A DNA stretch of 64,000 bases from Dehalococcoidia bacterium (GTDB lineage Bacteria; Chloroflexota; Dehalococcoidia; Lucifugimonadales; G958296245). Positions 50,079 through 59,171 of this stretch are shown here, one piece after another; within the stretch, counting starts at the first letter, position 1; each line of letters begins with the position of its first letter. The notes beneath the pieces are model-generated. The model saw only the letters and a list, made by a program, of their open reading frames with translations, ran no database searches and was not told the origin of the DNA. The stretch is taken from NCBI GenBank assembly GCA_965262055.1, contig CBDHEI010000002.1:3156347-3220346 (forward strand), read 5' to 3'. A program made the translations under genes and the position numbers.

Positions 50079-50136
50079 GGCGGCCGAGATCAACCTGCAT
50101 CCAAGAACAGCTTGACCAGAATTCCTACGTTTCCGG

Positions 50137-50328
50137 CTACCAGCGCTGCCCCAAGCCGAACAGCGGGAATATTACACGGTCGAGCCGTTGCTCCATGCTG
50201 GCCAACCGTTGGTCAACGCTTCTAACCCGTTGCCCAACGGTTCCCAGCCGCTGGTCAACGACACCTACTCGACCTTCTAGCTGCCCAAGGCCGCGGGCGA
50301 CCTCTTCTGTGCCAGTTGAAGCAACCAT
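50137..50328 (-). CDS. possible small coiled-coil ORF (weak)
   Basis: The 63-aa product has reiterated VDQRL/VGQRV/MEQRL units. The SD is weak and the region is more AT-rich. Confidence 0.25.
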   Translation of the reverse strand: MVASTGTEEVARGLGQLEGRVGVVDQRLGTVGQRVRSVDQRLASMEQRLDRVIFPLFGLGQRW

Positions 50329-50345
50329 ATCCTACCCTAGAACCC

Positions 50346-50696
50346 TTAGAACCCTTGCCTCTTCGACCAGCCTTGATTCCGATGCGTCATACCCAACAAT
50401 GGCAGTATACCGCTTGCCGTCCGTACGAGAGGTTTGGGTATACGGAATCCACCGATATGGCTGTACGCCGCGCGGTGGTCGACACGTACTGCGTATGTCA
50501 CCGCAGTTGGCCTCCGGCTCAGCAAGCGCCGCGTGGCTGTCGCGTCTCTTGCGTCGAGCTCATAGTCACCGGTCTCAACGTCGATGACTACGAATGTCCC
50601 CTTCTCCACCGGCCCAACTTGAGAAAGGACCCGTTCATGGTATATGGCTTCTCCCAAGGCTGTTATTTCCCCGGGTTCGTAAGCACGGCCTGCCAT
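50346..50696 (-). CDS. small hypothetical protein
   Basis: The ATG at 50696 is preceded by a strong aggaggaggg SD. The product is MAGRAYEPGEITALGEAIYHERVLSQV...TFVVIDVETGDYELD. The family is not named. Confidence 0.5.
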   Translation of the reverse strand: MAGRAYEPGEITALGEAIYHERVLSQVGPVEKGTFVVIDVETGDYELDARDATATRRLLSRRPTAVTYAVRVDHRAAYSHIGGFRIPKPLVRTASGILPLLGMTHRNQGWSKRQGF

Positions 50697-50848
50697 GGCG
50701 CCCTCCTCCTGACAATGGTGAAGCGTCTTGGCCACTATTTAAAGATACGCTCCAAGCTGCCCTATGGTCAATCAAGAGTGGGTGAGGCCGTTTAGCCCCG
50801 TATCCCGAGTGCGGGCTGCCCCCGTTTGCGGAACGTCCGGCGACTGAG

Positions 50849-50854
50849 TACAAT
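50849..50854 (+). promoter_or_regulatory. possible -10 box TACAAT upstream of the GS-like cluster
   Basis: It lies 64 nt upstream of the ATG at 50918. No clear -35 was found. Confidence 0.2.
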
Positions 50855-50917
50855 TCTCCACGAGTCGTGAGCAGAGTGGCTTCACGGCCGTATCCGGTCA
50901 GATCCGCAGGGTGAGCC

Positions 50918-52252
50918 ATGACCGCCGACAACCCCTCCATAAATGAGCTGGTGCGCGCGTGGGGAGAGCAGGGCGTGCGCTACGTGCGCTTCGAGCTCCC
51001 CGACCTCCACGGCACCAGCCGCTCGAAGATAGTGCCGCTGGCCCACGTGGAGGGGTTCGCCGCCAGCGGGCTGAACATGTACGGCGGCGCCGTCACGCTG
51101 GATACCGCATCTTCCGTGGTCGACGGCACCCTGTACAACGAGGAGGTCCTGTACGCCGACCAGTTCCTCGTCCCGGACCCGGCGACGGCGGCCATCGTTC
51201 CATGGACCGAGTCCACGGCACGGCTTATCTGCGACGGCTACTGGGCCGACGGCACCCCCCAACGCGCCGCGCCGCGGCAGGTCTTGGCGCGCCTGATGGA
51301 GCGGGCGCGCGAGATGGGGTACATGGTCAATGCAGGCCTGGAATACGAGTTCTACGTGCTGGACGGCGAGACCGGCGAGCCCACATTCGGCGGCATCCAC
51401 ATCTTCAACAGCATAAGGAACACCTACATACCGGTCATCGAGCAGGTACTCGACCAGATGTCGGAGGCGGGCATCGACATAATCACTGCCAACAGCGAGT
51501 ACGGCCCCTCCCAGTTCGAGATAAACTACGCCCCCGCAATTGGGGTCGCCGCCGGAGACACGGGCTTCACGTTCAAGAACGGCGTCAAGGCGATAGCGCA
51601 CCAGCTCGGCTACAACGCTACCTTCATGACCAAGCCGTTCGCCGACCAGTCGGCGAGCGGGTGCCATGTTCACGTGAGCTTGTTGGACAAGGACACGGGC
51701 GAGAACGTCTTTTTGGACGCCGAAGACTCGGATGGGCTGTCCGCCGTCTGCCGGCAGTTCATCAGGGGGATGCTGGACCACGCGGGCGCGAGCATGGCGC
51801 TGCTTGCCCCCTCTTTGAACTGCTACCACCGATTTGTGCCGCACCACTTCGCGCCCTCCAACGTGAGCTGGGGCGTCGAGGATCGGACGGCACTTGTGCG
51901 GGCGAAGAACCCGCGTGACGAGAATACCCACTTGGAGAACAGGCTCGGAACTGGCCTCTCGAACCCCTACCTCGCCTTGGCTGCGGTCGTGGCCGGGGGA
52001 CTGCTGGGGCTGGAGGCCGGCGTGCCCGCGGCCCCTCCTGGTGAGGGAACGGCGGAGAGCCGGCCGGAGCATGCGGCGCTTCCTGGCAGCCTTTCAGAGG
52101 CGCTGGACGCCCTGGAGACAGACGGCGCCTTCTCCGAGCTGCTCGGCGGCGAGTTCGTCGAGGCGTACTGCACGATGAAGCGTTACGAGGTGCAGCGCTT
52201 CAGAGAGCACGTCACGGACTGGGAGCGCACCGAATACCTGGAGGTGTACTAG
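50918..52252 (+). CDS. glutamine synthetase family protein (gamma-glutamyl-amine synthetase-like, GmaS/GlnA3-like)
   Basis: The 444-aa product contains VRYVRFELPDLHGTSRSKIV, EYEFYVL, EYGPSQFEIN and CHVHVSL, which are GS catalytic-domain signatures. Confidence 0.8.
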   Translation: MTADNPSINELVRAWGEQGVRYVRFELPDLHGTSRSKIVPLAHVEGFAASGLNMYGGAVTLDTASSVVDGTLYNEEVLYADQFLVPDPATAAIVPWTESTARLICDGYWADGTPQRAAPRQVLARLMERAREMGYMVNAGLEYEFYVLDGETGEPTFGGIHIFNSIRNTYIPVIEQVLDQMSEAGIDIITANSEYGPSQFEINYAPAIGVAAGDTGFTFKNGVKAIAHQLGYNATFMTKPFADQSASGCHVHVSLLDKDTGENVFLDAEDSDGLSAVCRQFIRGMLDHAGASMALLAPSLNCYHRFVPHHFAPSNVSWGVEDRTALVRAKNPRDENTHLENRLGTGLSNPYLALAAVVAGGLLGLEAGVPAAPPGEGTAESRPEHAALPGSLSEALDALETDGAFSELLGGEFVEAYCTMKRYEVQRFREHVTDWERTEYLEVY

Positions 52253-52254
52253 CT

Positions 52255-53265
52255 ATTAAGAGAATAGTAATAACCAAGCCGCTCGAGGCTGGCATCGACG
52301 AGACCGACGAGCCGAGGCCCGGCCCTGGGCAGGTGCTGGTGAAGACGTCCGTCACCGGCATAAGCGCCGGCACGGAGATGGGCCTTTACAAGGGCACGAA
52401 CGAGGCGCTGGTAAAGCGGCGCTGGGGCGAGAACTGGGTCTACCCCATGTACCCGGGCTACGAAGCAGTGGGAAGGGTGGTGGAGTGCGGCCCAGGCGCG
52501 GATCGGCTCAAGCCGGGCGACCGCATCATAAGCTACGGCGGTCATACCGAGTACAACGTAGTCGACGAGGCGGGGGCAGTTAAGCTTCCGGACAACATCT
52601 CCGACCGCCAGGCCACGTTGTCGATCCTGGGCACCACGTCCCTCCACGGACTACGCCGTGGCCGGGTAGAGTACGGCGACACCGTGGCCGTAGTCGGCAT
52701 GGGCCAGATGGGCCAGATGGGCATTCAGCACGCCAGGTTGTCCGGGGCCGCCCGCACCATAGCTGTGGACAAGGACCCGTGGCGGCTCGACATGGCGAGG
52801 CGGCTGGGCACCGAGCACTGCATCAACCCTGACGACGGCGACCCTGTAGAGGCCATCGCGCGCATCTCGGACGGAGGCGCTCACGTCGTGCTGGAGACCG
52901 CCGGCGTGGCGCCCGCCATACCACTTGCCATGGCCCTTGCCCGCGACGAGGGGCGAGTAGTGATCGTGGGCTGGCACCTGGAGTCCATCGACTTCGAGCC
53001 AGGCGAGGACTTTCTCTACAAGGAGCTGGAGCTATTGGCGTCGCGGGGCAGCGGCTATACGGACGTTTCGGAGACTGGCCCCAGGCGCTGGACAAACCCA
53101 AAGAACCGGGCCCTCGTAATAGACCTCATCTCGCGCGGCCTTATCCGCACCGAGGGGCTGGTCACTCACGTGCTGCCCTATACGGAGATCAGCCGCGCTT
53201 ACGAGATCATCCGCACGAAGTCGGAGCCGTCCCTCCAGGTCGTGCTGACCTGGAACGAGGCTTAG
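52255..53265 (+). CDS. zinc-dependent alcohol dehydrogenase / MDR family; N-terminus extended to a non-canonical ATT start
   Basis: The ORF track starts at the GTG at 52333 (MLVKTSVTGISAGTE). The open frame upstream encodes the typical MDR N-terminus IKRIVITKPLEAGIDETDEPRPGPGQVLVK. GGAGG (52240-44) precedes an ATT at 52255, 2 nt after the GS-like TAG. Confidence 0.65.
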   Translation: MKRIVITKPLEAGIDETDEPRPGPGQVLVKTSVTGISAGTEMGLYKGTNEALVKRRWGENWVYPMYPGYEAVGRVVECGPGADRLKPGDRIISYGGHTEYNVVDEAGAVKLPDNISDRQATLSILGTTSLHGLRRGRVEYGDTVAVVGMGQMGQMGIQHARLSGAARTIAVDKDPWRLDMARRLGTEHCINPDDGDPVEAIARISDGGAHVVLETAGVAPAIPLAMALARDEGRVVIVGWHLESIDFEPGEDFLYKELELLASRGSGYTDVSETGPRRWTNPKNRALVIDLISRGLIRTEGLVTHVLPYTEISRAYEIIRTKSEPSLQVVLTWNEA

Positions 53266-53279
53266 GAGGACTGCTGACC

Positions 53280-54209
53280 ATGTGCGGGATCGCGGGGATT
53301 CTCTTCAAGAACGGCAGTGAAGAAGGCCCGGTGGGGCAACATCTGCTCGCGATGGCGTCCACCCTTGGGAGTCGTGGTACCGATTCCACGGGAATGGCCA
53401 TTACGCGCATGGGGCAGCCCGGCACGCTCGTCATGGTGGCCTACCTGGAGGGTCTCGCGACGTCCGACGCGGGTGTCCGGGACCGCGAGGTCATAGAGCG
53501 GGTAGGGGAAGTCGCGCCAGTGGAGGGTTTCCACCTAGCCGGTGAGTTGCTGCGCGTGGTCGTACGGGACGTCTCTGAAGAGGCGAGCATCGACCTGCTA
53601 GGCAGGATTACCCGCGCCGCCGAGTCCGTGGACGAGGTCAAGGTGTTCAGCATCGGGCGCGGCATGGAGATACTCAAGGACGTAGGCGTTGCCGAGCGAC
53701 TGAACGAGGGTTACGCCGTGGGAGCGGCGTCGGGGACGCACGGGCTTGCCCATACGCGTCTGGCTACGGAGAGCCGCGTGGACGTCTGCCACTCCCACCC
53801 GTTCTGGGCGCGCCCCTTTCCCGACATAGCGGTCGTTCACAATGGCCAGCTCACCAACCACCACAAGCTGCGCCGGCAGTACGAGCGCCGCGGCTACGAG
53901 TTCCTGACCGAGAACGACTCCGAGGTGATAGCCGTCTACGTGGCCGATCGCCTGTCGCAGGGCGCCTCGCTGGCCGAAGCGCTCACCGACTCGGTGGACG
54001 TGCTGGACGGCACATTCACCTACCTGATATCGACCAAGGACTCGATCGGATACGCCAAGGACCGGTTCGCCACGAAGCCGCTGGTGGTGGCCGAGAACGA
54101 CCGGTACGTGGCCATGGCGTCCGAGGAGATAGCCTTGCTCCCAGCCATAACCCCGGACTCCGTTGTCCACGAGCCCTCCGCCAGGGCGGTGAAGACTTGG
54201 TCGAGATAG
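53280..54209 (+). CDS. class II glutamine amidotransferase (glutamate synthase N-terminal-domain-like, MgsA-like)
   Basis: MCGIAGILFKNG has the N-terminal nucleophile Cys. HTRLATES...HPF...HNGQLTNH is also present. Confidence 0.75.
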   Translation: MCGIAGILFKNGSEEGPVGQHLLAMASTLGSRGTDSTGMAITRMGQPGTLVMVAYLEGLATSDAGVRDREVIERVGEVAPVEGFHLAGELLRVVVRDVSEEASIDLLGRITRAAESVDEVKVFSIGRGMEILKDVGVAERLNEGYAVGAASGTHGLAHTRLATESRVDVCHSHPFWARPFPDIAVVHNGQLTNHHKLRRQYERRGYEFLTENDSEVIAVYVADRLSQGASLAEALTDSVDVLDGTFTYLISTKDSIGYAKDRFATKPLVVAENDRYVAMASEEIALLPAITPDSVVHEPSARAVKTWSR

Positions 54210-54889
54210 ACTGCGCCGGTCTCACCACCTCAGAGATAAACCGGAGCATCAAGGGCTCCCTCGGCCCGGAATCCTCCGTAAGAGTGCTGAACCCGGCATC
54301 GCGACACAACCTCGGCGTGGCCGTCAACGACGCGGGCAGCATATTCTTCGATGGGAGCGTCGGGTACTACTGCGCGGGCATGCTGAAGTACGCCAACGTC
54401 GAGGTGAACGGTAGCTGTGGCTGGTCTGTGGGTGAGGGAATGATGTCGGGGAGCGTCGTAGTACGCGGCAGCGCGAGCGCGGCAGCGGGCGCGGCCATAC
54501 GCGGCGGCACGCTAATCGTCCACGGCAACGCGGGGCCCAGGACTGGCATCTCCCAGAAGGGCGGGACCATCGTCATAGGCGGCGACGTCGGCTACATGTC
54601 CGGGTTCATGATGCAGAAAGGCGTGTTCGTCATCTGCGGAGACACCGGGGAGGCCCTTGGAGACTCGCTGTACGAGGGCAGAATATACGTGGGCGGGCGT
54701 ATCGAGCAGCTTGGCAACGATACCGTGGCCAAAGAGCCCGACGACGACGACGTGGCCATGCTAAAGGGACTGTTCGATCGATACAGGGTCGACGCCCCGG
54801 AACCCGAGGCCTTCACCAAGATAGAGTCTGGCAGGCGCCTGTACAACTTCGATAAGCAGGACATCGGCCTATGGAAGGCGGCGCTATGA
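54197..54889 (+). CDS. GXGXG-motif protein (glutamate synthase alpha-subunit C-terminal-domain-like, MgsB-like)
   Basis: Repeated beta-helix G-rich units are present (VVVRGSASAAAGAAIRGGTLIVHGNAGPRTG..GGTIVIGGDVGYMSG). The TTG start at 54197 overlaps the upstream gene. Confidence 0.7.
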   Translation: MVEIDCAGLTTSEINRSIKGSLGPESSVRVLNPASRHNLGVAVNDAGSIFFDGSVGYYCAGMLKYANVEVNGSCGWSVGEGMMSGSVVVRGSASAAAGAAIRGGTLIVHGNAGPRTGISQKGGTIVIGGDVGYMSGFMMQKGVFVICGDTGEALGDSLYEGRIYVGGRIEQLGNDTVAKEPDDDDVAMLKGLFDRYRVDAPEPEAFTKIESGRRLYNFDKQDIGLWKAAL

Positions 54890-56217
54890 CCACCGACGGC
54901 GGCGACGGCGCCCGGCCACTGTTGCAGGAGAGCTACTTCTACAGCCGCGAGGTGATAGAGGACATCCAGGCCAAGGCTGCCCTGGGCCGGTACCGGATTC
55001 GCGGCTTCGGGACGTTGCGCAAGCTGCCTGGGTTCGACGATCTGACCTTCGTAACGTCGGGCCTCAGCCGCGTGCCGCTGGAGGGGTACCGGGAGAAGTG
55101 CAGCACCGAGACGGTGCTCGGCTCTAGGTACGCCTCCGAACCGATGCGGCTGGAAACGCCAATAACGATAACCGGGATGAGCTATGGCGCTCTTTCGCGC
55201 AACGCCAAGGTCGCCTTGGGTAAGGCGGCGACCCGCGTGGGCATATCGACCTGCACCGGGGACGGCGGCATGCTGGAGGCGGAGCGCGAGGCGTCTCGCC
55301 TGCTCGTCTACCAGGTGCTGCCCAGCCGCTACGGTTTCGACCCCGACCACCTCCGCATGGCGGACGCGCTGGAGGTCGTGATCGGGCAGGGGGCGAAACC
55401 CGGCACGGGCGGCGTGCTGCTGGGTCAGAAGGTCTCCGAGGAGATCGCCAACCAGCGGGACCTACCTCCTGGGATCGATCAGCGCAGCCCGGTGCGGCAC
55501 CCTGACTGGATGGGCGTCGACGACCTGATCATCAAGCTCGAGGAGCTCAGGGAGGCGACCGAGGGCCGCGTTCCCGTCTACGTCAAGGTGGGCGCCGGCA
55601 GGGTCACGGACGACGTGAAGCTGGCAGCCAAGGCTGGCGCGGACGTCGTCTTCGTGGACGGCATGGAGGCCGGCACTGGCGCATCCCCGGAGATGCAGCT
55701 CGACCATACGGGTATCCCCACCATGGCGGCCCTGGTGGAGGCCGTGGCTGCGCTTGAGGATATCGACCTGAAGGACGAGGTCCAGCTGATCATCGCAGGC
55801 GGCATACGCGGAGGCGCGGACATTGCGAAAGCCCTCGCCCTTGGCGCCGATGCCGTGGCCATAGGCACTGCGGCACTCATAGCGCTAAACTGCAACCGGC
55901 CCATATACGTCGAAGACTACCGCGCCCTCGGCGCCGAGCCGGGGAAGTGCCACCATTGCCACACGGGCATGTGCCCCGTGGGGATCACGACGCAGGACCC
56001 CGACCTTATGGCGCGCCTCGACGTGGACGAAGCGGCCGACAGGGTTACACGCTACCTGAACGCTCTCACCATGGAGGTGCAGCTCGTCGCCCGCGCCTGC
56101 GGCAAGTGGAACGTGCACGACCTGGAGCCCGAAGACCTGCGCGCGCTCACGATGGACGCCTCCTTCATAACCGGCATCCCCATGGTGGGCAGCAACAAGG
56201 TGCCGGCGGGCCAGTAG
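54886..56217 (+). CDS. FMN-binding glutamate synthase family protein (MgsC-like)
   Basis: ITGMSYGALS...QGAKPGTGG...FVDGMEAGTGASP...IAGGIRGGADIAKALALGADAVAIGTA. The ATG at 54886 overlaps the upstream stop as ATGA. Confidence 0.8.
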   Translation: MTTDGGDGARPLLQESYFYSREVIEDIQAKAALGRYRIRGFGTLRKLPGFDDLTFVTSGLSRVPLEGYREKCSTETVLGSRYASEPMRLETPITITGMSYGALSRNAKVALGKAATRVGISTCTGDGGMLEAEREASRLLVYQVLPSRYGFDPDHLRMADALEVVIGQGAKPGTGGVLLGQKVSEEIANQRDLPPGIDQRSPVRHPDWMGVDDLIIKLEELREATEGRVPVYVKVGAGRVTDDVKLAAKAGADVVFVDGMEAGTGASPEMQLDHTGIPTMAALVEAVAALEDIDLKDEVQLIIAGGIRGGADIAKALALGADAVAIGTAALIALNCNRPIYVEDYRALGAEPGKCHHCHTGMCPVGITTQDPDLMARLDVDEAADRVTRYLNALTMEVQLVARACGKWNVHDLEPEDLRALTMDASFITGIPMVGSNKVPAGQ

Positions 56218-56255
56218 GGCGGGTTCGAGCCAGGCGGGCAGGGGTGCACCCCGAA

Positions 56256-57161
56256 ATGGATGAACGGAACGTAGTAACCGTGACGATAGGCGGGAGCGCC
56301 GTCCGCGTCGTCCTGCTCGAAGACGCCGCGCCGCGTATATGCTCGGCCTTCCGCGCCAGTCTCCCTCTCGACAGCTTTGCGGTGCACGCGAAGTTTGCGG
56401 GCGAGGAGCTGATAGCCATGCTGCCGTTCTACGAGGGCCCTGAGAACGAGGTGCCCTCGGTCGCGCCGGGAGACATTGGCTACTACCCCGCACGGCAGAC
56501 GCTATGCCTCTTCTACGGCGAAATCATGCCATTCGCCAGCGTCAGTCTCTTCGCCCGCGTCCATCTCGACGACCTCGGCGCTGCGCAGGAAGCGGGTAGG
56601 GCCGTACTGAGCTGCGGGCCCGCTCCTGTGAGCATCGGATGCGGGACGGGCTTGAAGGCCCCGCTGCGGCGCGGGCTTGCAGCCGGCATAGAGTCCGAAG
56701 TGCTGCGGGCCCTAGACGACATATGGTCCCATGAGCCGGAGGACGTGAGCGCTCTGCGGAGCTTCGAGCGCCCGCCGATGGGCAACATGCCCTGCGTGCT
56801 CTATGCCAACTTCGACCTGTTCTGGATCGTGGAGAACCTCCTTGTGTTCCGTGGCCTCGCCTCGGACGAGGCGCTGTCGCCCAAGCAGCTCGCGCGCACC
56901 ATGGCCGCCCTGACGCGGAAGACCCAAAGCCGGCTGGCGCATTGGGGCTTCCCAGAGGCCTGCGCCCTGCTAGAGCGCGTCTCCGACCATCTCGACCGCT
57001 CGCCTAGGCCCACGCGACGGGGCTTGGTCGCGCTGATAGACAGCCTCGTCCTGTATACCAACCGGCTGCAGTCCTGGGTCGATGCCATGGCGCCCTGGGG
57101 CGACATGGACAGCCTGGAGCTTGCCCGCCCCGCGCACGGGGAGCCTCCACTTGGGCGCTGA
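56256..57161 (+). CDS. DUF3830-like (cyclophilin-like fold) N-domain fused to an unknown C-terminal domain
   Basis: VTVTIGGSAVRVVLLEDAAPRICSAFRASLPLDSFAVHAKFAGEE...GDIGYYPARQTLCLFYGE is followed by ~170 aa with no family I recognise. Confidence 0.5.
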   Translation: MDERNVVTVTIGGSAVRVVLLEDAAPRICSAFRASLPLDSFAVHAKFAGEELIAMLPFYEGPENEVPSVAPGDIGYYPARQTLCLFYGEIMPFASVSLFARVHLDDLGAAQEAGRAVLSCGPAPVSIGCGTGLKAPLRRGLAAGIESEVLRALDDIWSHEPEDVSALRSFERPPMGNMPCVLYANFDLFWIVENLLVFRGLASDEALSPKQLARTMAALTRKTQSRLAHWGFPEACALLERVSDHLDRSPRPTRRGLVALIDSLVLYTNRLQSWVDAMAPWGDMDSLELARPAHGEPPLGR

Positions 57162-58203
57162 CGCCGAGCGCACCTACCGCGCCGCCATCATCGGATGCGG
57201 CGACGTAGGGAGCACCATAGGCGACCACATGCTGGGCGCCCCGGGGCGTTGGGTCCTGCCTCACGGCCACGCACCGTCCTACGAGGCCGCATCTCGCGTG
57301 GAGCTAGTCGCCGGCGCGGAGATACACGAAGAGAGACGGCTTGCCTTCGAGGAGCGCTGGGGCATAGCGGAGCACGTCTACGCCGACTACCGCGAGATGC
57401 TGGAGTCGGAGCAGCCAGACATCGTCAGCGTCGCCACGCCGACGCCCATGCACGAGGAGATGGCGTTGGCCTCCGTGGAGGCTGGCGTGAAGGCGATATT
57501 CCTGGAGAAGCCAATCGCCAGCAACCTGGCAGGCGCTGACCGGGTAGTGGCCGCGTGCGCCGACGCCGGCATACCCTTGGCTGTGAACCACACCCGCAGG
57601 GGCGACGCCGTCTACCGGAAAGTCGCCGAGCTGGCGCAGTCGGGAGAAGTGGGCGAACTGCACAGCATGATGATGCTGTTCCCGAGCAGGCTGATGTGGA
57701 TAGGCACACACGGACTGGACCTCATGAACTTCGTCGGCGGCGACGTGCCGGTCCGCTGGGTCAGCGGCGAGATCCAGGAAGGAGGCGACCGCGACCCCGG
57801 CGGCAACGCCATCTTCGAGTACGAGAACGGCGTGCGCGGGTTCATCAACGGCTTCAAGAACAACCCAGTCGGCTTCAGGCTGCACGTGATCGGCTCGGAG
57901 GGCGAGATCGTCATCAGCCGCTACGACCTCAAGCTGTGGCGCAACAAGCCCGGAACCCGGATGGGCTACGAGCCTGTCGTATATCCCTTCCCGCTCAGCC
58001 TCAATTACGTGTCACCCATGGTCAAGCTAATTGAGGAACTCGTGGACGCCATCGAGGGCGGCCCGGAGCCGGTCTCCAACGGCCGGACGGCGCTCAGGGC
58101 GCTTGAGCAGGTAGTCGGCATGTACTGCTCGTCGTGCCAGGACTGCCGGCGAGTCCGCCTCCCCGACGACCTTGACCGCGACCTCACCATAGACTCGCTC
58201 TAG
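57151..58203 (+). CDS. Gfo/Idh/MocA family oxidoreductase
   Basis: YRAAIIGCGDVGS is the Rossmann motif. IVSVATPTPMHEEMALASVEAGVKAIFLEKP is also present. The TTG start at 57151 is assumed. Confidence 0.7.
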   Translation: MGADAERTYRAAIIGCGDVGSTIGDHMLGAPGRWVLPHGHAPSYEAASRVELVAGAEIHEERRLAFEERWGIAEHVYADYREMLESEQPDIVSVATPTPMHEEMALASVEAGVKAIFLEKPIASNLAGADRVVAACADAGIPLAVNHTRRGDAVYRKVAELAQSGEVGELHSMMMLFPSRLMWIGTHGLDLMNFVGGDVPVRWVSGEIQEGGDRDPGGNAIFEYENGVRGFINGFKNNPVGFRLHVIGSEGEIVISRYDLKLWRNKPGTRMGYEPVVYPFPLSLNYVSPMVKLIEELVDAIEGGPEPVSNGRTALRALEQVVGMYCSSCQDCRRVRLPDDLDRDLTIDSL

Positions 58204-58217
58204 CGCCCCCGTACGTT

Positions 58218-59171
58218 CTAGCCAACCCCCGTCAGAGCCCGGCGCGGGTTCTCCACCATGATGCGGTGGAACTGCTCCTCGTCCACGCCCAGCTCGCCCA
58301 GTATCCCGAGGAGTTGCGTGGAGATGAAGTCGTACCCAGGGCCCCCATATGCCTTGTAGTCCTTCTTGTAGCAGACATCGTGTGAGAAGAGCAGATGGTC
58401 GATCAGCCCGGCGTCCAGTATCTGGCCAACGAGACCGAGCAGTTTCTCGCGCTCGTAGTCGTTGGCCTTGAGCAGGTTACCCATCCGGTCGAAGCAGATG
58501 AAGGCGCCGCGCCTGGCTATCTCCGCGCTGTACTCAAGGTAAGGGTAACTGTGACAGTGGCCGATCGACACGCGGCGTGGGTCAACGCCCTCGTCGGCCA
58601 GGATGTCCAGCTGGTCCAGCCCCACCGGACCGCGCGTACTGTGAGTTGTGAGCAGCACGCCGGTCTTCTTCTGGGCGCGGGCGGCCGCCCTAAGCACGCG
58701 CTCCTCCACCGGCGATAGCCATGTGAAGTGAGCGCCCATCTCGCCTATGATGCCTGCCTTGACGTCCGTGCCCTCGATGCCCTCCGTCAAGTCGACGACC
58801 AATTCCTCGGCGATCTCGTCCGTCTTCTTCCTCCACAGCGAGGGCTCGTAGTAGGTCTCTCTGTACCATCCGCACCCCAGGACGATGTTTACCCCCGTGC
58901 GCTCGGCGACCTGGCGCACAGCCTCGGCGTGCTTGATGGGAAAGAGATCGTGGTCGTTGCCGCGTAGGCCGCCGCTCGTCTGGTCGACGATGGTCACGCC
59001 GCCGGCCTCCTTGAAGGCGCCGATCTCCTCGGCCGTGAGATTGGGGTCGTTAAGGAAGCCGTCCCCCGACCAGACGTCGCGCATCAGGTCGAGATAGATG
59101 TGCTCGTGTATCAGGGTGAAGCCGAGTTCGTTGGCTGGCACTGGCCCGGTGACGGTCATAACGCTTTCCAT
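58218..59171 (-). CDS. phosphotriesterase-related (PTE/PHP family) amidohydrolase
   Basis: LGFTLIHEHIYLDL...TTHS...IGHC...SHD matches the binuclear-metal-centre pattern. Confidence 0.75.
   Translation of the reverse strand: MESVMTVTGPVPANELGFTLIHEHIYLDLMRDVWSGDGFLNDPNLTAEEIGAFKEAGGVTIVDQTSGGLRGNDHDLFPIKHAEAVRQVAERTGVNIVLGCGWYRETYYEPSLWRKKTDEIAEELVVDLTEGIEGTDVKAGIIGEMGAHFTWLSPVEERVLRAAARAQKKTGVLLTTHSTRGPVGLDQLDILADEGVDPRRVSIGHCHSYPYLEYSAEIARRGAFICFDRMGNLLKANDYEREKLLGLVGQILDAGLIDHLLFSHDVCYKKDYKAYGGPGYDFISTQLLGILGELGVDEEQFHRIMVENPRRALTGVG

Follow-up and report, generated by a model that had tools for sequence, protein, structure and literature searches.

The N-methylglutamate (NMG) pathway, with its glutamine synthetase (GS)-like ligase (GmaS/GlnT), its three-gene synthase (MgsABC, equivalent to GlxBCD) and MgdABCD, is taken as a marker of bacterial methylamine use, and gmaS serves as an environmental marker gene. 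The canonical N-methylglutamate synthase is redox-neutral. The routes of PuuA (putrescine), IpuC (isopropylamine), GlnA4 (ethanolamine) and the aniline/naphthylamine ligases likewise begin with a GS-like ligase that lacks ammonium specificity, but they continue through oxidation of the gamma-glutamyl-amide and a hydrolase, not through an MgsABC-type synthase. The amidotransferase, flavin mononucleotide (FMN) and GXGXG modules of such a synthase are also found in the alpha subunit of glutamate synthase (GltS) and in the split archaeal-type GltS. Here we describe an operon-like arrangement of seven genes in a 64-kb window (C2:3156347-3220346; the window is the whole stretch of DNA analysed) of a Dehalococcoidia genome, in which a GS-like ligase and an MgsABC-type trio are accompanied by a protein with the McbB/cucumopine-synthase fold, while MgdABCD is missing. 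The genome comprises 4.22 Mb in two contigs, is 98% complete and has a G+C content of ~64%; its closest public relatives are uncultured Dehalococcoidia known from metagenome-assembled genomes (MAGs). We put at about even the chance that the operon encodes a glutamate-shuttled catabolic pathway converting a primary amine other than ammonium to an aldehyde, and methylamine is probably not its substrate.

Neighbourhoods were compared across the 80 best genomic loci by homology to the McbB-fold partner, all from MAGs, and the open reading frames (ORFs) of these loci were clustered with a filter on third-position G+C (GC3) against antisense ORFs in high-GC Alphaproteobacteria. The loci belong to Alphaproteobacteria (27), Dehalococcoidia/SAR202-type lineages (20), Actinomycetota (18; Gaiellales, Thermoleophilia and others), Ktedonobacteraceae-type lineages (9) and Firmicutes (5), with one unassigned. 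At least one trio gene lay within 10 kb of the partner gene in 57 of the 80 loci and a ligase or trio gene in 69, and the ligase itself was linked to the partner in 40. Loci with the partner and trio or ligase genes span Chloroflexota, Pseudomonadota, Actinomycetota and Bacillota, and the 11 loci with neither were mostly short contigs or came from gut Firmicutes. The partner, which in the window is a DUF3830 fusion protein, is a conserved companion of the trio across phyla, and the medium-chain dehydrogenase/reductase (MDR) and Gfo/Idh/MocA genes are lineage-specific accessories. These last two genes occurred, among the 80 loci, only in the two nearest relatives (L016 and L017; for Gfo, only these two had a copy of high identity), whose fusion proteins are 84% and 75% identical to the window copy. 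The sequence-only reading of this DNA had named the three genes together as atypical partners; all three are present, but only the fusion gene is conserved across phyla.

Carriers of the module include Dehalococcoidia, among them marine SAR202-type lineages, marine and soil Alphaproteobacteria, Ktedonobacteria, Gaiellales/Thermoleophilia and some Firmicutes. A PTE-family gene was present in 12 of the 80 loci and adjoined the ligase in the marine SAR202-type loci, where the order is PTE, ligase, MFS transporter, trio and fusion gene. In the alphaproteobacterial loci, reading of the sequences further suggests ABC transporters of the polyamine type, amidases, a GntR regulator and a protein resembling dimethylformamidase, all putative assignments. 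The MDR protein is probably a zinc-less, BchC-like dehydrogenase, as it has the motifs TGISAGTE and GYE where zinc alcohol dehydrogenases carry their Cys/His zinc ligands. The nearest solved structures of the MDR, Gfo and PTE proteins were generic and yielded no substrate clue (for example, weak matches to 3ezy and DgpA1 for Gfo, and 3k2g and E. coli PHP for PTE).

The absence of mgdABCD from the window, which the sequence-only reading had pointed out, extends to the rest of the genome: no mgdABCD/soxBDAG-type cluster was found in its 4.22 Mb. The sole match to SoxG scored 22 bits and lay inside an 850-aa ORF, and the best candidate for SoxB, a lone DAO gene, lies next to an aldolase and an aminotransferase. 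A ligase grouping with GlnA together with a trio grouping with archaeal-type assimilatory GltS, or mgdABCD adjoining comparable loci with the same partner genes, had been named beforehand as grounds against the proposal. Neither was observed: the ligase lies apart from GlnA, the trio is of the MgsABC type, and mgdABCD was absent from all 80 related loci. In addition, no folD/purU or dmm genes lie near the operon.

By its sequence the trio is of the MgsABC type, as first proposed from the gene order. Its three genes follow the same order as in the NMG pathway, and 254 plasmids encode "FMN-binding glutamate synthase family proteins" that share 55-60% identity with the window FMN subunit. On a Paracoccus sp. 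MA plasmid (L098) and on Aminobacter niigataensis p2 (L100) such subunits lie in textbook NMG clusters, in the order amidotransferase, glxC, FMN subunit, glnT, sarcosine-oxidase-like beta, delta, alpha and gamma genes, then folD and purU. By comparison, an outgroup glutamate-synthase-related protein is only 37% identical to the window subunit, and the module FMN subunit is far nearer MgsC than GltB in sequence. The Cys1 motif of the amidotransferase (MCGIAG) was kept in 46 of 46 homologues from related loci, and in 55 of the 80 loci the GXGXG gene lay next to its two trio companions. In a tree of FMN subunits the canonical synthases formed one clade (100/100), which stood in a polytomy with module clades from Dehalococcoidia, Alphaproteobacteria and Ktedonobacteraceae.

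The module FMN subunits differ from the canonical enzymes at the position of the GltS 3Fe-4S site. There the window subunit reads LNC...C-HH-C-HTGM-C-PVG (C-x21-C-x2-C-x4-C), and cysteine occupied all four positions in 53 of 53 module copies (the window copy and 52 others), whereas the four canonical synthases compared (Paracoccus, Aminobacter, Rhizobium and Acinetobacter) all carry D/Y/W/D. Since this putative four-Cys Fe-S site is kept in the module and lost from canonical N-methylglutamate synthases, the module synthase appears to follow a different redox logic, in which the FMN subunit, unlike the redox-neutral enzyme, probably passes electrons to or from an outside partner. GltS likewise has cysteines at this FMN-adjacent site; the spacing differs from that of the genome's own GltB (C-x5-C-x4-C), the module synthase consists of three small proteins, and the cluster contains no GltD-like gene or ferredoxin-type partner. 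Another non-canonical cluster of glnT and trio genes, whose FMN subunit also has four cysteines, is found on Aquabacterium olei pTB101 (L099, 274689-293996); its next genes encode an alpha/beta hydrolase, a flavin reductase, an LLM (flavin) monooxygenase, an aldehyde dehydrogenase and a polyamine-type ABC transporter, and it has neither mgdABCD nor an McbB-fold gene.

Residues and phylogeny place the ligase as neither a true GS nor GmaS but as a member of a separate GS-like clade predicted to have lost ammonium catalysis. Aligned to Bacillus subtilis GS (4lnf), it has Gly in place of the Asp50'-loop aspartate (Asp53'), next to an 8-residue insertion, and Phe311 in place of the catalytic Glu304 of the Glu-flap. 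This Gly/Phe pattern was found in 36 of 38 module ligases, compared with Ala/Trp in four glnT genes of plasmid NMG-type clusters and Asp/Glu in both GlnA of the same genome. The losses correspond to those of GmaS, in which Ala48' and Trp300 are the mark separating it from GS (PMC7948447). The GmaS-like character suggested at the outset therefore holds for the missing ammonium-site residues but not for the assignment itself, since the ligase falls in its own clade and scores 273 bits against TIGR03105 (GlnT/GSIII), for which the cut-off is 470. Its scores against GlnA (254 bits) and gamma-glutamylputrescine synthetase (250 bits; cut-off 650) were similar, and among solved structures it matched GSI-alpha enzymes at 213 bits and glutamate--methylamine ligase at 185 bits. 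In a maximum-likelihood tree a long branch (100/99) parted the module ligases from GlnA, canonical glnT and a fourth GS-like gene of the genome; one row labelled as the genome's own GlnA in this tree is the longest ORF of its locus and not GlnA, and sits on a 10-unit branch, and the residue comparison used the correct ORF. The most plausible activity is probably that of a gamma-glutamyl-amine synthetase. The fourth GS-like gene (C2:1416108-1417151) falls with the glnT genes of Acinetobacter and Aquabacterium, and its Ala/Trp pair is that of GmaS; the genome that carries it has no second MgsC-type gene.

The DUF3830 fusion protein, regarded as unknown in the sequence-only reading, has a recognizable fold. 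It consists of an N-terminal cyclophilin-like beta-barrel (DUF3830) and a C-terminal helical bundle (Cucumopine_C-like). An AlphaFold2 model built with 29 homologues (pLDDT 90, pTM 0.87) matched the Pictet-Spenglerase McbB (3x27) over the whole chain in a Foldseek search (TM 0.81, E 5e-14, 311 columns), and the family profile matched the same structure over both domains (E 2.9e-8). Only half of the chain matched KslB, in which the domain order is swapped (PMC12012969). The architecture is that of the McbB-family Pictet-Spenglerases (McbB 3x27; KslB 9ns6 and 9k0a; the cucumopine/mikimopine synthases of Ri plasmids), with the McbB domain order; unlike these, the partner is often split into two genes, and its linked neighbours are the genes of an MgsABC-type trio, not those of alkaloid or opine synthesis. 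Outside Dehalococcoidia it is usually encoded by two adjacent genes, for a cyclophilin-like protein of ~127 aa and a helical protein of ~160 aa, and we therefore regard the window protein as a fusion of the two. Invariant residues of the family lie in the barrel (K49, E54, E66, N67, D76, Y79, Y80, Q84, T85 and C87) and in the bundle (E196, R229, R273, D279 and D288).

The partner is uncommon. Among 1.84 billion representative proteins 689 homologues were found at E <= 1e-3 and 51 at E <= 1e-30, and a sample of 401 genomes of the phylum held three carriers. A plasmid collection contained remote relatives only. On the mikimopine-type Ri plasmid pRi1724 (L096, 27055-28022) a remote DUF3830 and helical pair sits immediately outside the T-DNA, beside ABC transporters and hydantoinase/oxoprolinase A/B, and on Sodalis pHS1 (L097) such a pair is found with ABC transporters, hydantoinase/oxoprolinase A/B and hutH. 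These pairs may be opine (cucumopine/mikimopine) catabolic genes, and their setting points to adducts of 2-oxoglutarate and amines as the substrates of catabolic members in the wider family.

In other phyla the core of the module is associated with bacterial microcompartments (BMCs). In 19 of the 80 loci a BMC shell gene was found no more than 10 kb away from the partner gene. The core, namely the ligase, the trio and the cyclophilin-like and helical proteins, shares its surroundings with BMC-H/T/P shell genes and with genes for acylating aldehyde dehydrogenase, PduL, acetate kinase (AckA) and PduS/T in Actinomycetota, in Ktedonobacteraceae and in a Desulfovirgula MAG. For example, the Desulfovirgula operon encodes, in order, the amidotransferase, GXGXG protein, FMN subunit, cyclophilin-like protein, helical protein, BMC-H, PduL, EutN, aldehyde dehydrogenase, a PduS-like protein, a tandem-BMC protein (BMC-T) and AckA, and the module occupies the usual place of the aldehyde-forming signature enzyme. 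The helical proteins of the BMC lineages have encapsulation-peptide-like amphipathic helices at their N or C end and a CxxCxxC motif (P0079, P0081, P0083, P0087, P0088, P0091, P0094; L085:3894-4841; L086:10387-11298), and a "TPLARDLA" segment in them weakly resembles the E3-binding (PSBD) domain of 2-oxoacid dehydrogenases (E 0.01-0.2). One 205-aa protein (P0067) is a BMC-H shell domain fused to a cyclophilin-like (DUF3830) domain. In having the core together with shell and aldehyde genes, these relatives resemble the MIC-type orphan aldehyde-processing metabolosomes (Sutter et al. 2021, PMC8217296). The text of that 2021 BMC catalogue and the supplements searched make no mention of pfam12903, pfam01645 or pfam01493, and its descriptions of MIC2 and MIC6 do not match the trio/partner core (PMC8217296).

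Taken together with what is known of the McbB family, these features can be arranged into a pathway. Known family members link an amino group to an aldehyde or 2-oxo acid as an iminium; McbB uses oxaloacetaldehyde, and the cucumopine and mikimopine opine synthases use 2-oxoglutarate. KslB also uses 2-oxoglutarate (PMC12012969). In the proposed scheme, the ligase would join the amine to the gamma-carboxyl of glutamate at the expense of ATP, as its residues and family suggest. The Cys1 amidotransferase subunit would then free the amine within the complex of amidotransferase, GXGXG and FMN subunits, and the freed amine would condense at the FMN site with 2-oxoglutarate, the product being either an N-substituted 2-iminoglutarate or an N-substituted glutamate, by homology to MgsABC and GltS. 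The four-Cys Fe-S site of the FMN subunit would exchange electrons with an external partner. Finally, the McbB-fold protein, to judge from its fold, the chemistry of its family and its gene linkage, would take the place of MgdABCD and isomerise or hydrolyse the iminium, which would release the carbon skeleton as an aldehyde and restore glutamate. Elsewhere, in other phyla, this core would feed a microcompartment with acylating aldehyde dehydrogenase, PduL and acetate kinase; the Dehalococcoidia genome has no BMC shell genes, and its pathway would therefore be cytosolic. The zinc-less MDR, Gfo/Idh/MocA and PTE-family proteins would be local additions that tailor the substrate or product, and they hint at a hydroxylated or lactone-bearing amine. 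The sequence-only reading had left a choice between a variant pathway for another amine and a differently completed methylamine route. We favour the former; a methylamine route is unlikely because the cluster has no folate or C1 genes and because the acylating aldehyde dehydrogenase and PduL of the microcompartment fed in relatives imply an aldehyde of at least two carbons.

Several observations weigh against this pathway. The case for an aldehyde product is borrowed from distant relatives, the window genome having no shell genes of its own. The Fe-S site is predicted from a cysteine pattern. No redox cofactor is evident in the partner, which could not by itself stand in for a dehydrogenase, and the FAD (DAO-family) oxidase that adjoins the core in Ktedonobacteraceae and some other loci is present in only part of the lineages and not in the window operon. 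The catalytic glutamate of the fold (McbB Glu97, KslB Glu274; PMC12012969) is Pro95 in the partner, and McbB His87 is Thr85, both replacements being invariant in the family; at ~17% identity to McbB the alignment may shift by a few residues, yet the family alignment has no invariant Glu near the site equivalent to Glu97. Because of these replacements, the chemistry of the partner cannot be transferred from its fold. In addition, gut Clostridia MAGs (L091, L093 and L095) carry close homologues of the two-gene partner without the trio, adjoining a hydantoinase/oxoprolinase, a peptide/opine-type ABC transporter and an enzyme of the ornithine-cyclodeaminase (OCD)/mu-crystallin family. A stronger form of the proposal is that the Fe-S trio and the McbB-fold protein constitute a new amine-oxidising system. 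An amine brought in as a gamma-glutamyl amide would be joined to 2-oxoglutarate, the partner would catalyse a reaction new for its fold, isomerising or hydrolysing the N-substituted iminoglutarate so as to release aldehyde and glutamate, and the FMN/Fe-S subunit would hand electrons to an external partner; the system as a whole would also be the missing signature enzyme of several orphan microcompartment types. We offer this tentatively, as an idea with the balance of probability against it.

The Clostridia loci and the remote plasmid pairs speak for a module that breaks down pre-formed conjugates of 2-oxoglutarate or glutamate, such as opine-like N-substituted glutamates or glutamines, lactams, lactones or Pictet-Spengler adducts, a reading that we judge unlikely although it is the strongest of the alternatives. 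The FMN/Fe-S subunit would in that case oxidise an N-substituted glutamate to a ketimine, the McbB-fold protein would cleave or hydrolyse the ketimine in a retro-reaction, and the amidotransferase, ligase and PTE-family hydrolase would act on amide, lactam or lactone forms. The neighbours of the partner-like pairs on pRi1724 and pHS1, with transporters of amino-acid/opine type, and those of the trio-less gut Firmicutes homologues are in its favour, the Fe-S site suits a net oxidation, and the lactonase-like PTE-family gene recurs in Dehalococcoidia. However, an ATP-dependent ligase is hard to fit to pure cleavage, and yet it is linked to the partner in half of the related loci. Moreover, identity between the window protein and the pairs from the Ri plasmid and Sodalis is only ~24-35% and covers just a portion of the former, and the putative role of these pairs is itself read from context.

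A biosynthetic operon is a much weaker possibility, which we regard as improbable. Its product would be either an N-substituted glutamate that serves as an opine-like signal or compatible solute or, with the McbB-fold protein as a true Pictet-Spenglerase, a heterocycle formed when 2-oxoglutarate reacts with an arylethylamine or an amino acid. The complete McbB fold, the Cucumopine_C score at its cut-off and the use of 2-oxoglutarate by KslB and the cucumopine/mikimopine synthases are consistent with such a product, for which the MDR and Gfo oxidoreductases could serve as tailoring enzymes, but the catalytic Glu and His of McbB are not conserved. The relatives, moreover, are found in catabolic settings, with importers, GntR regulators, amidases and microcompartments with acylating aldehyde dehydrogenase, PduL and AckA; in the streamlined marine SAR202 genomes the core lies among housekeeping genes, and conserved functions for further tailoring, resistance or export are lacking. 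A second GS/glutamate synthase (GOGAT) pair for ammonium, in which an archaeal-type split Fe-S glutamate synthase and a divergent GS would be joined by passenger genes, could draw on the cysteines at the GltS Fe-S site and on the slightly better match of the ligase to GSI-alpha structures than to GmaS, but is highly improbable given that both the Asp50' and Glu-flap catalytic residues are missing from the ligase, that the genome already has, on its other contig, a standard GltB and two GlnA, the GlnA keeping these residues, that the FMN subunit is much closer to MgsC than to the glutamate-synthase-related outgroup, that no GltD-type reductase is linked, and that such a pair would not account for the conserved association with microcompartments and the McbB-fold protein.

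The seven genes lie on the + strand in the order given by the sequence-only reading, as judged from the ORF list and Pfam matches (Table 1), and the tight junctions that it described are borne out. From 5' to 3', the ligase and MDR genes are separated by 2 nt and the MDR and amidotransferase genes by 14 nt; the amidotransferase and GXGXG genes overlap by 13 nt and the GXGXG and FMN genes by 19 nt; a 38-nt gap precedes the fusion gene, which overlaps the Gfo gene. A scan for promoters and terminators gave nothing above chance, and hence no terminator-like site inside the operon. None of the cluster proteins reached an NCBIfam equivalog cut-off.

Table 1. Genes of the operon and the convergent neighbouring gene (positions within the window).
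Product	Position	Strand	Domain or family evidence
GS-like ATP-dependent ligase, 444 aa	50918..52252	+	Pfam Gln-synt_C, 306 bits
MDR/ADH-like dehydrogenase/reductase, medium-chain	52255..53265	+	Pfam ADH_zinc_N, ADH_N; NCBIfam bchC, 73 bits (below cut-off)
Class II (Ntn) glutamine-amidotransferase-type subunit, MgsA/GlxB-like	53280..54209	+	Pfam GATase_6, GATase_7; MCGIAG start
GXGXG beta-helix subunit, MgsB/GlxC-like	54197..54889	+	Pfam GXGXG, 49.9 bits
FMN glutamate-synthase-domain subunit, MgsC/GlxD-like	54871..56217	+	Pfam Glu_synthase, 334 bits
McbB-fold fusion protein, 301 aa	56256..57161	+	Pfam DUF3830, 44 bits; Cucumopine_C, 27 bits (equal to its cut-off)
Gfo/Idh/MocA NAD(P)-dependent oxidoreductase	57082..58203	+	Pfam GFO_IDH_MocA and C3 domain
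PTE-family (PHP/lactonase-like) amidohydrolase	58218..59171	-	Pfam PTE, 197 bits; convergent with the operon

Three gene starts needed attention. The fusion gene begins at ATG 56256, which gives a 301-aa protein matching its homologues in length; a 404-aa ORF from 55947 was dismissed as the fusion gene, as the homologues match the shorter ORF. For the MDR gene the likeliest start is ATT 52255, 2 nt past the ligase stop, because its conserved N-terminal strand is coded upstream of the first canonical start (no ATG, GTG or TTG precedes it in 52240-52335) and because ATC occupies the start position in both nearest relatives. The Gfo gene may start at ATG 57082 or TTG 57151, and either start overlaps the 3' end of the fusion gene. 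Upstream of the operon lie MiaB-like, NadA and NadC genes, followed by an 840-nt stretch (50080-50917) in which no riboswitch was found with Rfam and whose small ORFs match no Pfam family. One of the two nearest relatives (L016, 3719-4528; L017, 7942-9873) has a gene for a Uma2-family endonuclease at the spot of this stretch, and in the other a GmrSD-type restriction gene is inserted between the FMN subunit and fusion genes.

We found no published description of the module, no paper on DUF3830 and no paper linking a microcompartment, a glutamate synthase and a signature enzyme in the literature searched. A look-alike of the NMG gene set exists, with a ligase of another clade, a putative Fe-S form of the synthase and a partner of opine-synthase fold, and it probably serves another amine; such clusters should not be annotated as methylamine utilisation or as glutamate synthase. 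If the proposed pathway is correct, it would provide the first catabolic role for the McbB fold and a new route from amine to aldehyde without pyridoxal phosphate (PLP), copper or tryptophan tryptophylquinone (TTQ) cofactors, and it would give orphan microcompartments a testable function.

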